From assembly GCA_038203525.1 (NCBI GenBank), contig JBBRDW010000033.1, forward strand, positions 1-24,000: a DNA stretch of 24,000 nucleotides, in the 5' to 3' direction. This document shows, piece by piece, positions 1-5,294 of the stretch. The notes under the pieces were generated by a model. It was not told the origin of the DNA, made no database searches, and saw only the letters and a program-made list of their open reading frames with translations. A program made the translations under genes and the position numbers. This stretch comes from Chitinophagales bacterium (GTDB lineage: Bacteria > Bacteroidota > Bacteroidia > Chitinophagales > Chitinophagaceae). The number at the start of each line of letters is the position of its first letter. The first letter of the stretch is position 1.

Positions 1-516
1 ACCCTTTGCGGATTTTATTCCATTCACATTTTCAAACACAAACATTTTTGGTTGATATTTCTCCAGATACTTCGCATACTGTACATACAAATAATTTCTT
101 GGGTCACCTTCCATATTGTTTGCAGATCTTGCTCTTCCTACCAGTGAATAAGCCTGACATGGTGGGCCTCCTATAATAAGATCAACCTTGTTACCCTTTA
201 ATTGCTTAGAAATTATTTTATGAATTTGCTTGTTATAGATTGAACCAATCGGCATATTAATTACACTGTCGAGCAATTCTTTTGGAATCTCTGCATAAAG
301 TTCTTTCCTATTTATTTCGCCCTTGAGGTACGAGATATAAATATTGTATTGACTAATTGATTTAAGATAATGATAAGCAGTTCTTGTCTTTAATGTATAG
401 CAGGCTGCCTCATCCATTTCAACATGTGCAATGGGTTTAAAACCTGCACGGATAAATCCTTCAGAAAGGCCGCCAGCTCCAGCAAATAGGTCAATAAAGT
501 TTAAGGGCTTGCTCAT
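1..516 (-). CDS. DNA (cytosine-5)-methyltransferase, N-terminal 172 codons; the gene continues past the left edge
   Basis: Reverse-strand translation from the ATG (complement of 514-516) gives MSKPLNFIDLFAGAGGLSEGF (motif I FxGxGG). It continues to LIIGGPPCQAYS (motif IV PCQ, about 150-180) and MFVFENVNG (motif VI ENV, about 20-45). It is absent from the ORF track because it is open at the window edge. Confidence 0.9.
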   Translation of the reverse strand, partial: MSKPLNFIDLFAGAGGLSEGFIRAGFKPIAHVEMDEAACYTLKTRTAYHYLKSISQYNIYISYLKGEINRKELYAEIPKELLDSVINMPIGSIYNKQIHKIISKQLKGNKVDLIIGGPPCQAYSLVGRARSANNMEGDPRNYLYVQYAKYLEKYQPKMFVFENVNGIKSAKG

Positions 517-521
517 GGTTT

Positions 522-737
522 TTAAAAATCCTTTGTATCAAAAAAATCTTTTAAAGAAATGTCCAGGGCTACTATTATTTTTTCTAATGTTGATATTGAA
601 ATATTTTTTCTCCCCTTTTCGATATGGTTTATATAAGTTCTTTCCATATCAGCAGCATAAGCAAACTTTTGCTGAGAGAGTTTTTTGGCCTTTCGTAATT
701 CAACGATTCTTTCACCGATTTTTTCTTTCAAGTCCAT
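522..737 (-). CDS. XRE-family helix-turn-helix regulator (71 aa), controller (C)-protein-like, directly upstream of the methyltransferase
   Basis: The ORF track gives 522..788. I prefer the internal ATG (complement 735-737), which gives MDLKEKIGERIVELRKAKKLSQQKFAYAADMERTYINHIEKGRKNISISTLEKI, a typical XRE/HTH_3 pattern. Its stop lies 5 nt from the MTase start on the same strand. Confidence 0.8.
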   Translation of the reverse strand: MDLKEKIGERIVELRKAKKLSQQKFAYAADMERTYINHIEKGRKNISISTLEKIIVALDISLKDFFDTKDF

Positions 738-753
738 GTTGCAAAGTATTTTT

Positions 754-788
754 ATGTGTCCTATAAAGCTGCATACTTTAGGACACAT
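754..788. promoter_or_regulatory. Perfect inverted repeat ATGTGTCCTA-N15-TAGGACACAT; candidate operator for the adjacent HTH regulator
   Basis: The 10-bp arms at 754-763 and 779-788 are exact reverse complements. The site begins 17 nt upstream of the HTH start codon (737, minus strand). Confidence 0.45.
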
Positions 789-845
789 TTTTATTAGCAG
801 AAATAATTAAAGACAGTTGTGAACATTATGTGCATGAAAATGGCA

Positions 846-882
846 AACGTGACTCATAATACATTTGCTTATAAGTCACGTT
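846..882. promoter_or_regulatory. Second perfect inverted repeat AACGTGACT-N19-AGTCACGTT upstream of the HTH-MTase operon
   Basis: The 9-bp arms at 846-854 and 874-882 are exact reverse complements. The GACT/AGTC half-sites recall C-box half-sites, but the spacing differs. Function is unknown. Confidence 0.3.
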
Positions 883-988
883 GGATAACTTCTTAAATGG
901 TTCAGGAGAAATTCACAAGCAGGGAGCGAAGTGTTTTTACGAACTTGTCTGGTTTTAATTTGCATTCCATAGTGGCTTTACTTTATAC

Positions 989-1088
989 TTGAATAGTAGT
1001 ATTAAACCCCTTCAGGGTTGATAGTGTACTGTAGTTATTGTGCTGCGGGTTTTACCCGCAGTTATTCATGTTAAAGCCCTTCGGGCTT
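989..1088 (+). repeat. Multi-hairpin repeat unit, copy 1 (RAYT-flanking family)
   Basis: This 100-nt unit contains hairpins AACCCC..GGGTT, CTGCGGGT-TTT-ACCCGCAG (preceded by GTAG) and AAAGCCC-TTC-GGGCTT. It repeats at 1129-1228 with 5 mismatches, exactly 140 bp later. Confidence 0.9.
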
Positions 1089-1128
1089 TTTATTGCACAC
1101 TCATTTTAAGCCTGAAGGGCCATAATGA

Positions 1129-1228
1129 TTGAATAGTAGTATTCAACCCTTTCAGGGTTGGTAGTGTACTGTAGTTATTGATCTGCGGGTTTTACCCGCA
1201 GTTATTCATGTTAAAGCCCTTCGGGCTT
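1129..1228 (+). repeat. Multi-hairpin repeat unit, copy 2
   Basis: 95/100 identical to 989-1088, in tandem with a 140-bp period. Confidence 0.9.
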
Positions 1229-1307
1229 GGTTGATAGCTGTACTATAATCTTGTACACGACCAATATTATTGCCATCGGGCCGCACATTAGAAGCTGTAT
1301 TGCTTGT

Positions 1308-1390
1308 AAGCCCGAAGGGCTTGAATGTGAATAACCATCGGCGAAACCGATGGTATAAAACATGAACACATAACCCCAAAGGGGTTAAAT
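1308..1390 (-). repeat. Multi-hairpin repeat unit, inverted and diverged copy
   Basis: The reverse complement reads AACCCCTTTGGGGTT ... ACCATCGG-TTTCG-CCGATGGT-TATTCACATTCAAGCCCTTCGGGCTT. The order of three hairpins and the TTATTCA..AAGCCCTTCGGGCTT tail match the unit. The middle stem sequence is replaced by a different but still complementary one. Confidence 0.7.
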
Positions 1391-1497
1391 ATGATATAAT
1401 GATTGTATTACGAATTGCTTTAAAAAGAAACCCGTTTATTATTAACTTTCGGAGGGTAAAATAAAATATTAAATTGCCTGTTAAATACAATTTTGAT

Positions 1498-1944
1498 ATG
1501 AGTACTTACCGCCAGATCTTTTACCAGATTGTTTTTGGCACAAAACACCGTAAGCCAACAATTGCAGAAGCATATGAGGAAGAACTATACAAATACATAT
1601 CGGGAATAATAAAAAATAAAAATTGTAAGCTTTATCGTATCAACGGTGTTGAAGATCATATTCATATCATGTCAGACCTTCATCCATCTATTTGTCTTAG
1701 TGATTATGTAAAAGAAATTAAGGTTGCCAGCAGTTTATGGATGAAAGAAGGAAATAAGTTCCCGGAATTCGAAGGATGGCAGGATGGATATGGTGCATTT
1801 ACTTATTCAATAAGAGAAAGGGACATGATAATAAACTATATAAAAAATCAAAAGGAACATCACAGATCAGAAAATTTTTATACCGAATACAGGCGTTTAC
1901 TTATTGAAAATGGAGTTGAATTCGATGAAAAATATTTATTGTAA
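1498..1944 (+). CDS. IS200-like Y1 (HUH) tyrosine transposase of the REP-associated (RAYT / COG1943) type
   Basis: MSTYRQIFYQIVFGTKHRKP...VEDHIHIM (HUH-type HxH motif)...GWQDGYGAFTYS (catalytic Tyr region)...YIKNQKEHH. The ORF track starts at a TTG (1474). The ATG at 1498 fits the usual MSTY.QI.Y.IVF N-terminus. Confidence 0.85.
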   Translation: MSTYRQIFYQIVFGTKHRKPTIAEAYEEELYKYISGIIKNKNCKLYRINGVEDHIHIMSDLHPSICLSDYVKEIKVASSLWMKEGNKFPEFEGWQDGYGAFTYSIRERDMIINYIKNQKEHHRSENFYTEYRRLLIENGVEFDEKYLL

Positions 1945-1950
1945 CAGTTT

Positions 1951-2043
1951 TATTCAACCCCTGTCGGGAGTGGGTGTCTGAAATATATTTATAGCTCCGG
2001 GTAATTAACTGGAGCTATTGATATTAAAGCCCCTTGGGCTTTT
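1951..2043 (+). repeat. Multi-hairpin repeat unit, diverged copy downstream of the transposase
   Basis: Reads TATTCAACCCCTGTCGGG ... AGCTCC-gggtaattaac-tGGAGCT-ATTGATATTAAAGCCCCTTGGGCTTT. The layout matches the unit, again with a different self-complementary middle stem. Confidence 0.6.
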
Positions 2044-2071
2044 GATGGCAGCACAAATAAGCCTAAGATTG

Positions 2072-2524
2072 CTACGATAATATTTTTTTACAAATTGCTT
2101 TTAATGTTTTTTCGAGAATAACAGGTTTCAACCCGCATTCCCAAACGGTAATAATTTTCCAGCCTTCTTTCTTTAAAGTTTTTAAAGCTTTGGCATCATT
2201 GGCTTTGTTGGTATTTATTTTTTGCAGCCACCATTCAGTCCTGGTTTTTGGTACAACATAATATTTACAGTTCTTATGTCCATGCCAGAAACAGCCGTGT
2301 ATAAAGATTAGCGTCTTATATTTTGGTAAAACAATATCAGGTTTACCGGGCAGGTGCTTTCTCCCATCTCCTTCAGGAGAGGGGCCGGGGGTGAGGCGGT
2401 GCAGCCTATAACGAAAGCCCTGTGCATGCAGAAAGCTGCGCACCAGCATTTCAGGCTTTGTGTTGGTGCTGCGGATGCGGCTCATATTAAAGCTGCGCTG
2501 TTCTTTAGTATGTACATCTGCCAT
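2072..2524 (-). CDS. vsr: Very-short-patch repair endonuclease (Vsr), copy 1
   Basis: MADVHTKEQRSFNMSRIRSTNTKPE...LPGKPDIVLPKYKTLIFIHGCFWHGH...WWLQKI...GWKIITVWEC aligns with E. coli Vsr landmarks recalled from memory (MADVHDK, LPGRPDFV, FTHGCFWHHH, IVWEC). Confidence 0.92.
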   Translation of the reverse strand: MADVHTKEQRSFNMSRIRSTNTKPEMLVRSFLHAQGFRYRLHRLTPGPSPEGDGRKHLPGKPDIVLPKYKTLIFIHGCFWHGHKNCKYYVVPKTRTEWWLQKINTNKANDAKALKTLKKEGWKIITVWECGLKPVILEKTLKAICKKILS

Positions 2525-2769
2525 AAAGCAAAGTTAGTTGCCGGTCGGCAGTTACATTTTCCTTTGTTTGGAATTTGAGATTTAGAATTATTTTTTTTGC
2601 AATCATCTGCTGCTATAAAAAAGAACCCCTGAAATGAGTAACCCTGATATTTGCCGGGGCAGGCTCCACAGGTGATGCCCGCATTGCAAATGCCGGTTTC
2701 ATAGTAAATTTATGATTAATAAAATTGTAGTTATTTTGCAGTTATGTTCACCTTGGAAACATAATGTAA

Positions 2770-3136: not shown

Positions 3137-3155
3137 GTACAAGAGTGCGACGCAA
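3137..3155 (+). repeat. 19-bp core repeat GTACAAGAGTGCGACGCAA (exact)
   Basis: Exact 19/19 match, intergenic. It is followed 25 nt later by CCGGGCTAAAAAATATTA (3181-3198). Confidence 0.95.
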
Positions 3156-4841: not shown

Positions 4842-5294
4842 TTACTTCTTTAATCGGCGCACCAGCTTTTGTAGGGTGGCCGCTGCTTTTGCAGGCTTTA
4901 GGTCACACTCCCAAACGATGATAATTTTCCAGCCTTCTTTCTTTAAAGCTTTTACAGCTTTTGCATCATTGTCTTTGTTCATATTTATTTTTTGTACCCA
5001 CCATTCGCTGCTTGTTTGCGGAACTTTAAAATATAAACAGTTGGTATGCCCATGCCAGAAACAGCCGTGTATAAAGATTACGGTTTTATATTTTGGTAAA
5101 ACAATATCTGGTTTGCCGGGTAGTTGCTTTCGCCTTTCTTCTGTAGGAGAGGGGCGGGGGGTGAGGCCGTGCAGTTTATAACGAAAGCCCTGTGCATACA
5201 GAAATTTACGCACCAGCATTTCGGGCTTTGCCTTGGTGCTGCGTATGCGGCTCATATTGTAGCTGCGCTGTTCTTTGGTAGGCACATCGGCCAT
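4842..5294 (-). CDS. vsr: Very-short-patch repair endonuclease (Vsr), copy 2 (paralog of 2072..2524)
   Basis: MADVPTKEQRSYNMSRIRSTKAKPE...LPGKPDIVLPKYKTVIFIHGCFWHGH...VWEC. It is 150 aa, the same length as copy 1, and collinear with it. Confidence 0.92.
   Translation of the reverse strand: MADVPTKEQRSYNMSRIRSTKAKPEMLVRKFLYAQGFRYKLHGLTPRPSPTEERRKQLPGKPDIVLPKYKTVIFIHGCFWHGHTNCLYFKVPQTSSEWWVQKINMNKDNDAKAVKALKKEGWKIIIVWECDLKPAKAAATLQKLVRRLKK

Follow-up and report, generated by a model that had tools for sequence, protein, structure and literature searches.

A candidate REP/RAYT-like module of Chitinophagaceae that pairs a subclass 1.2 Y1 transposase with a three-hairpin repeat

We analysed the first 24 kb of contig C33 (hereafter the window, meaning the whole of this 24,000-nucleotide stretch) from the genome of a Chitinophagales bacterium, labelled G000, whose assembly comprises 4.77 Mb in 211 contigs. 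The window contains an intact gene for a Y1/HUH transposase of 148 aa (1498-1944, + strand), which lies in a cluster of structured repeats made of three hairpins each. We consider it probable that the region from 999 to 2043 is a complete module of the Chitinophagaceae, similar to the systems formed by repetitive extragenic palindromes and REP-associated tyrosine transposases (REP/RAYT), in which a transposase of TnpA_Y1 subclass 1.2 is associated with its cognate three-hairpin substrate, and that the module is at a founder stage or inactive in this genome. Domesticated transposases that sustain a population of non-autonomous repeats are exemplified mainly by REP/RAYT systems; to our knowledge, almost all characterised cases are from Proteobacteria, and all have class-2 enzymes.

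The transposase and its three-hairpin units

The protein matches the Pfam family Y1_Tnp (PF01797, 1e-24) and the NCBI IS200 model NF033573, for which it scores 68.5 bits against a cut-off of 55. Its HUH motif is D53-H54-I55-H56 in the context E-DHIH-I, its W motif G-W94-Q95-D-G and its Y motif N-Y114-I-K-N-Q118-K-E-H121-H122. Across 29 sequences His54, His56, W94 and Q95 are invariant, as are F127, E130, E137 and F142 of the C-terminal tail, in which residues D143-L147 are at least 90% conserved; the Y---Q--HH signature is kept in 23/23 orthologs. Furthermore, the His-Ile-His residues and the pair Tyr114 and Gln118 align to the catalytic residues of IS608 (Y127/Q131 for the pair).

Classification was based on published motifs and on comparisons with the sequences and folds in PDB. 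Subclass 1.2 was defined by DH[IV]H, WQ and YIKNQKEHH, a mean length of 148 aa and a conserved C-terminal tail specific to the subclass; it averages about 1.7 copies per genome and occurs in Cyanobacteria and Bacteroidetes (Quentin et al. 2018, BMC Genomics 19:475, PMC6006769). Subclass 1.1 has W[TS] and Y[IV]ENQ and averages 4.8 copies at 99.4% identity, and class-2 RAYTs (TnpA_REP) all have Y---NP (PMC6006769). The window protein has WQ and YIKNQ and does not match the subclass 1.1 motifs; on the exact agreement of motifs and length, we assign it to subclass 1.2, with which it also shares the C-terminal tail and the Bacteroidetes occurrence. Many identical copies of the gene with identical ends were looked for as well, and tblastn on the assembly of G000 found a single copy, together with one paralog of 42% identity that lies where contig C17 ends, in agreement with the low copy number of the subclass. 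In one respect, the window gene departs from the published account. Subclass 1.2 was recorded as IS200-like, without REPs and generally without IS200-type terminal structures (PMC6006769), whereas conserved three-hairpin units flank the gene in G000 and at 20 or more orthologous loci, and are dispersed in many genomes. No later paper on subclass 1.2 was found in a literature search.

Sequence and profile searches of PDB matched only TnpA proteins of the IS200/IS605 type, namely those of IS608 and ISDra2, a Deinococcus protein and two Sulfolobus proteins, and the E. coli TnpA_REP (4ER8) was unmatched even at E <= 10 in the profile search. Using an AlphaFold (AF2) model (mean predicted local distance difference test, pLDDT, 86), the top 29 fold matches in PDB were all IS200/IS605-type TnpA (IS608, ISDra2 and relatives), with 4ER8 at rank 30 (E 1.4e-5, against about 3e-9 for ISDra2 and IS608). 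A class-2 RAYT/TnpA_REP identity is therefore ruled out, since the protein has YIKNQ and not Y---NP, and 4ER8 is its nearest relative neither in sequence nor in fold. A preliminary description of this DNA had called the enzyme RAYT-type. What stands of this claim is the arrangement, a single-copy gene bracketed by inverted structured repeats; the protein, on the other hand, is of subclass 1.2 and not a class-2 RAYT.

Repeat mapping and a covariance model (R1, built from 38 units of 17 loci) recovered the repeat copies around the gene as they had been described, including the inverted copy and the diverged copy downstream. Two direct copies (989-1088 and 1129-1228) are 95% identical and have a period of 140 nt. 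They correspond to unit u1 (999-1090, + strand; z-score of the single-stranded DNA (ssDNA) fold -5.3; R1 86.1 bits) and its tandem copy u2 (1139-1230, + strand; fold z -6.6; 86.9 bits). Unit u3 (1306-1392, - strand; fold z -6.2; 84.4 bits) is inverted and forms the left arm of the module, and the direct unit u4 (1950-2043, + strand; 56.1 bits) forms the right arm. The latter is degraded: it has 8 non-canonical pair positions, the right arm of its first hairpin (h1) is mutated, the apex of its middle hairpin (h2) is altered and the middle hairpin is off consensus, and its nhmmer E value is 2.8e-11, compared to about 5e-17 for u1 and u2. The spacer between u1 and u2 also contains a remnant of a partial inverted unit (AAGCCTGAAGGGCC; 1106-1165, - strand; R1 23.2 bits, E 0.002 with filters off), which overlaps h1 of u2.

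Folded as ssDNA, the units form three hairpins each, with z-scores of about -4.7 to -6.6, and 0/200 shuffles fold equally well. This bears out the three hairpins of the preliminary description, the first hairpin of u4 being the degraded one. The hairpins of u1 are AACCC/GGGTT (h1), CTGCGGGT/ACCCGCAG (h2) and AAAGCCC/GGGCTTT (h3). The middle stem changes in sequence from unit to unit and keeps its complementarity, as had been noticed: it is ACCATCGG/CCGATGGT in u3, and the third version is AGCTCC/GGAGCT. Units u1 and u2 contain the tetranucleotide GTAG, which had been proposed as a REP-like feature. This proposal is rejected, because family-wide GTAG is not conserved and occurs in the linker of only 5/38 and 2/40 units; since so few units carry it, it is probably incidental.

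The repeat is private to this locus in G000. Besides u1-u4, nothing in the rest of the window scored above 23 bits with R1 and filters off, the remnant at 1106-1165 itself scoring 23 bits. Searches of the whole assembly by blastn-short, per-hairpin Hamming scans, an nhmmer profile and the covariance model found no unit copy elsewhere, so that the total is four full units and one partial unit, all at the locus; blastn-short and the single-hairpin Hamming scans returned chance matches of 15-19 nt alone for the window units. An Rfam scan of 800-2200 gave far sub-threshold matches only, and no known RNA family fits.

Conservation and dispersal of the module in the family

About 3,760 homologs were found at E <= 1e-10, nearly all of 147-148 aa, and the named ones are from Chitinophagaceae, Segetibacter or Ferruginibacter. 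We extracted 23 orthologs (56-90% identity), all of which align over the 148 codons without indels, and 21/23 are uninterrupted. The dN/dS ratio against the orthologs is 0.03-0.09 at dS values of about 1 or higher, which places synonymous sites near saturation. The transposase gene is under strong purifying selection. The two interrupted orthologs, L035 (G071:C307:12599-13042) and L092 (G097:C299:3081-3524), have one in-frame TAA each and are possibly recent pseudogenes; both are still bracketed by high-scoring units, and G097 has at least 14 units.

The order inverted unit, gene, direct unit was found in most of the loci inspected (three metagenomic contigs and the orthologs of 20 genomes), and at least 20 orthologous loci keep it. 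The genes next to the module are unrelated between orthologous loci. One metagenomic contig, L027, has the same order as the window, with two direct units, one inverted unit, the gene and one direct unit, followed by vsr.

Alignment of the 38 units gave the consensus TATTCAACCCCTTnnGGGTTG, about 22 nt, CCnCnGGTTTCACCnGnGG and TTATTCATATTAAAGCCCTTCGGGCTT. In the unit, h1 is CAACCCC..GGGGTTG, h2 has a variable lower stem and a conserved GGT-TTC-ACC apex, and h3 is AAGCCC..GGGCTT. Paired cells make up 93.8% of the alignment, against 83.1% in shuffles. Cells in which both partners have changed number 80, compared to 22 in shuffles (0/500 shuffles reach 80) and at most 17 in slid controls. Compensatory changes affect 7/8 pairs of the middle stem, and h2 is the hairpin with the strongest covariation; h1 and h3 have cores of invariant sequence. 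The earlier observation that middle stems are replaced by different and still complementary sequence thus extends from the window to the family.

Distribution was assessed in a sample of 301 genomes of the family from 151 genera, with an orthologue threshold of E <= 1e-55. An orthologue is present in 19/301 genomes (17/151 genera) and is single-copy in 18/19, including four assemblies of 1-3 contigs. For each genome, 28-144 candidate units were scored by the covariance model, and the resulting unit counts are lower bounds. All 19 orthologue-bearing genomes contain units, at least two each: there are 2-5 in G071, G000, G013 and G182, 8-33 in eleven genomes, and at least 39 in G021, 44 in G074, 68 in G260 and 75 in G064. 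Hence, the statement that the flanking family occurs nowhere else holds for the whole assembly of G000 but not for most other orthologue-bearing genomes, where the units are dispersed. Among 11 control genomes without an orthologue, the covariance model found no units in 6, and in the one-per-genus sample units are present in 33/151 genomes. Two apparent exceptions, G045 and G097, carry cognate genes at 56-57% identity with canonical flanking units; the threshold is slightly strict, these genes scoring 1e-55 and 1e-52.

Many of the dispersed units are gene-less inverted doublets with a spacer of 10-15 nt (G064, G008), which is the arrangement found around the gene, minus the gene. The halves of a doublet carry different middle stems. 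There are no gene-less doublets of this unit in G000. In the complete genome G064, h1 and the loops are constant, and it is in the h2 lower stem and the h3 stem that copies differ while their arms are still complementary. Some process keeps the arms of the palindromes matched while the unit copies diversify. Stem variants within this one genome include AAGCC/GGCTT, CGCCC/GGGCT and TATCCC/GGGATA (loci L039, L060, L064, L065 and L071-L090), and several of its units have ATAACATACCTTGCATCGCC about 12 nt beyond h3.

Units are also found without the gene. No cognate gene was found in the assemblies of G008 (at least 95 units) and G053 (at least 25 units). The congener G002 has four solitary units (for example C42:55461-55551, C101:9858-9949 and C113:23918-24007) and no gene, and the orthologue is absent from the three congeners searched (G001-G003). 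The units of G008, G053 and G002 may be orphan or decaying populations after loss of the gene. The sole Y1 gene of G008 (C24:60637-61056) has hairpins of another family at its flanks.

Only G298 has the orthologue twice, at L034 (C6:204975-208418) and L046 (C6:341996-345439). In both loci, positions 1299-2079 constitute a 781-nt element, 98.5% identical between the two, with terminal inverted repeats of about 16 bp (CTATCGTGTGGACACA / TGTGTCCAYACGATAG) and bounded by 9-bp direct target duplications (GTCAGCCCC; CCTCCCGAG). These repeats and duplications indicate that a different element, of the DDE type, carried the G298 module along as cargo. The surroundings of the window module were searched for terminal inverted repeats of the G298 kind, and none were found.

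Origin of the locus, neighbouring genes and other repeat families

Comparison with the syntenic site of G002, a genome of the same genus, delimits an insertion. Window positions 837-968 align to G002:C15 (L056 1501-1632, 76%), where the sequence runs straight into vsr, the gene for the very-short-patch repair endonuclease. The G002 segments that align by BLAST to window 837-968 and 2105-2536 overlap by 37 nt. Because the two flanks overlap on G002:C15, the window has an insertion relative to G002, from 969 to about 2104; this segment, missing from G002, holds u1-u4, the gene and a new 3′ end of vsr. The resident vsr has left a relic of its 3′ end (905-968, - strand), which reads ECKLKPDKFVKTLRSLLVNFS* and marks the left junction of the inserted block, and the present vsr (2072-2524) has its own C-terminus besides the relic. 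Window 1140-2525 aligns to L027 1610-2961 in one alignment of 1431 nt (72.5%) that covers u2, u3, the gene, u4 and vsr. From these alignments, the 3′ end of the present vsr probably came in with the module.

Most simply, units, gene and vsr would have recombined as one block into the resident vsr, with homology anchoring one side and an illegitimate join at 968/969. The insertion is not clean or element-sized, as Y1 transposition would give. Entry of a block accounts for the congeners without the gene and for a repeat family that is private to this locus in G000. The cluster arrived within this larger block, and nothing shows that the enzyme amplified units here beyond the local tandem copy.

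On one side of the locus lie genes for a helix-turn-helix regulator (522-788, minus strand) and a C5-methyltransferase (1-516, minus strand); on the other side lies vsr (2072-2524, minus strand; PF03852 1.2e-31, TIGR00632). A second intact vsr paralog is found in the window at 4842-5294. Both intact paralogs have a 12-residue, G+C-rich insert (RLTPGPSPEGDGRK / GLTPRPSPTEERRK), which the vsr of G002 and that of L027 do not have. The non-coding segment 837-891 contains a near-perfect (13/14) palindrome at 846-882 and is 91% identical to the congener G001 (C738:13005-13059) and about 76% identical to G002; the neighbouring vsr coding DNA is lower, at 70-74%.

The paralog on contig C17 (C17:51821-52258, in the region C17:51615-52631; minus strand; 42% identity) is a second Y1 gene of subclass 1.2 in G000, with the motifs DHIH, WQ and YVLNQKGHH. 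It lies at the contig end, together with the start of a tandem second copy, and is flanked by a third repeat, a hairpin pair of about 70 nt (TTACGCCAGCGGCGTAA and TTGCCCCAGCGGGGCAA). Other contigs carry this C17-type repeat as at least 11 inverted doublets, and every doublet occupies the middle of a conserved MITE-like element (MITE, miniature inverted-repeat transposable element) of about 300 nt. The paralog and its doublets look like a REPIN/RAYT-like system (REPIN, REP doublet forming hairpins) in an expanded state, in the same genome. Copies of the repeat are found on about 14 other contigs, for example at C14:38954-39120, C19:30905-31073, C49:1398-1565 and C54:24569-24737.

A far larger family in G000 is built on a 19-bp core, TTGCGTCGCACTCTTGTAC, present in about 1,570-1,790 copies. 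The preliminary description had stated that this family does not flank the transposase, and this is correct: the nearest core is at 3137, over 1 kb away from the gene, with none within 1 kb in the window. Its copy number does not covary with the gene across genomes. Cores number 1,000-2,200 in the congeners G001-G003, which are without an orthologue, whereas the orthologue-bearing genomes G013 and G021 have 3 and 0 cores; G260 combines at least 68 units with 1 core, G022, in which there is no Y1 gene of any kind, has 28 cores, and genomes with the C17-type paralog (for example G004, G026 and G028) have no cores. We also looked for another Y1 gene flanked by the 19-bp family and found that the second one is flanked by the third family. 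A fixed spacing between cores and C17-type doublets was sought in G000, and the distances vary from 92 to 379 nt. Genome-wide mapping of Y1 genes and repeats therefore gives one Y1 gene with a private cluster, one with dispersed doublets, and a larger 19-bp family belonging to neither. This settles that the 19-bp family is independent of the window gene and is served by neither Y1 transposase of this genome.

In G064, 6-8/38 units have a variant of the core that ends 20-22 nt from the h1 end of the unit (for example G064:C1 4163179-4163310, 4924920-4925049 and 4008650-4009350; loci L073, L079, L082, L083 and L085), and at least 8/114 cores are no more than about 100 nt away from a unit. The two families are linked in G064 by what looks like targeted insertion or a composite repeat; the conclusion for the window is unchanged.

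Competing explanations and significance

Among known systems, the module resembles REP/REPIN-RAYT systems (class 2; E. coli YafM, PDB 4ER8; Pseudomonas REPINs) in its arrangement: a single-copy Y1 gene lies between inverted palindromic repeats (u3 on the - strand, u4 on the + strand), dispersed repeats occur singly, as inverted doublets and in clusters, and what is conserved in their stems is the structure and not the sequence. It differs from them in several ways. The protein has Y---Q in place of Y---NP and no sequence match to 4ER8, the unit has three hairpins (about 90 nt) instead of one, there is no conserved GTAG, the halves of a doublet have different middle stems, and the phyletic distribution is patchy. 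Moreover, the flanking repeat is over-represented in G064 (at least 75 copies) and G260 (at least 68), but not in G000, which has four copies, all at the locus. IS200/IS605 elements (subclass 1.1; IS608, ISDra2) and their MITE derivatives (PATEs) share with the module the HUH/Y1 fold, the catalytic His-u-His, Tyr and Gln, hairpins beside both ends of the gene, a module size of about 0.7 kb and the existence of gene-less derivatives. Unlike these elements, the window gene is single-copy and has other Y and W motifs, its ends are inverted and not co-oriented, with three hairpins apiece, and no near-identical copies were seen except inside another element (G298). Y1 genes flanked by terminal inverted repeats have been named TIRYTs (Di Nocera et al. 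2013, PMC3733652; the name is also used in PMC6006769). The G298 module, with its terminal inverted repeats of about 16 bp and its 9-bp target duplications, is like a TIRYT, whereas the window module is without such repeats or duplications.

From analogy with the TnpA of IS608 and ISDra2, we infer how a REP/RAYT-like module of this kind would work, from DNA binding and the recognition of strand and hairpin to mobilisation in trans. The enzyme would bind the hairpins on ssDNA, and would cleave and rejoin them via Tyr114 and a metal held by His54, His56 and Gln118. Units or gene-less inverted doublets would be moved in trans, while the gene itself would stay put. In this genome, the block shows one local duplication (u1/u2) and a degraded right-hand unit and has seeded no other site.

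Several observations weigh against this interpretation. The protein is nearest to autonomous IS200/IS605 transposases, and not to TnpA_REP, the enzyme that has been characterised biochemically. Unit counts are minimum values. In G008 and G053 units are abundant and no cognate gene was found, so either the units outlast gene loss or another enzyme moves them. In G298, the module was moved by a different transposase. Unit u4 is degraded, so the copy in the window may be non-functional as a substrate, and its degradation may add to the lack of spread in G000. Finally, the patchy distribution (19/301 genomes) is unlike that of classical RAYTs, which are reported to be mainly inherited vertically.

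Some of these same observations would also be expected if the module were an ordinary autonomous insertion sequence (IS) of the IS200 group, with two inverted three-hairpin units as its ends, single-copy here by chance, with the doublets as MITE-type deletion derivatives and nothing domesticated. The protein is of class 1 and above the NCBI IS200 cut-off (68.5 against 55 bits), its nearest solved structures are the TnpA of IS608 and ISDra2, the module from u3 to u4 is about 740 bp, the size of IS200, and the doublets resemble a module from which the gene was deleted; patchy distribution, differing neighbourhoods and in-frame stops in two orthologs fit as well. We nevertheless regard this explanation as unlikely, though it deserves more weight than the other alternatives. 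It is weakened by the constant single-copy status of the gene (18/19 genomes, four of them in 1-3 contigs, the duplicated case having moved inside a different element), by the ancient divergence of orthologs that are saturated at synonymous sites and under strong purifying selection, unlike recent near-identical copies, by the inverted ends, when those of IS200/IS605 have the same orientation on one strand, and by distinct motifs, WQ and YIKNQKEHH differing from the W[TS] and Y[IV]ENQ of subclass 1.1 with its 4.8 copies at 99.4% identity (PMC6006769). Contrary to what an element of this kind would leave, the insertion in G000 carries a vsr fragment, leaves a relic and is not element-sized.

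The hairpins might also be thought of as expression signals, that is, bidirectional terminators or insulators of the gene and its neighbours that were duplicated locally and are not transposition substrates. In u1 and u4, the G+C-rich stem of h3 is followed by a T run (AAAGCCCTTCGGGCTTTTT) at the ends of convergent genes, and all hairpins are perfect palindromes and would therefore act on both strands. However, the whole unit occurs in fixed order and spacing at dozens of sites far from Y1 genes in other genomes, often as inverted doublets, no T run follows h2, which covaries most strongly, unit presence tracks gene presence, and no Rfam family matches, all of which makes this explanation very improbable. 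We give still less credit to the proposal that the enzyme acts, or once acted, on the abundant 19-bp family and that its private cluster is incidental. The linkage of cores to units in G064 speaks for it, but it is already contradicted by the cross-genome counts, with abundant cores in G001-G003 and no orthologue, next to no cores in G013, G021 and the unit-rich G260, and no core within 1 kb of the window gene.

The REP/RAYT-like interpretation can be extended from this locus to the subclass, with somewhat less assurance. We lean towards the view that subclass 1.2 supplies the enzyme of a second REP/RAYT-type system, in Bacteroidota, with an origin in class 1 that would be separate from that of the class-2 RAYTs. 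The system would have as its substrate a unit of three hairpins, in which the middle and outer stems diverge between the copies of one genome and yet remain paired, and it would be found in every state: a founder cluster (G000), at least 75 dispersed copies, and gene-less orphan populations. The protein subclass, REP/RAYT systems and IS200-derived MITEs were already known; the cognate, structurally conserved three-hairpin repeat of subclass 1.2, dispersed in many Chitinophagaceae, appears to be undescribed.

The three hairpins, one of which varies in sequence but not in structure, are defined substrates for biochemistry. The natural series of founder, expanded and orphan states provides a handle on how populations of repeats start, grow and die, and the window locus is a clean example of the founder state of the module. 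Taken together, our results suggest that an IS200-like, class-1 subclass thought to be repeat-less has a REP/RAYT lifestyle in Chitinophagaceae.

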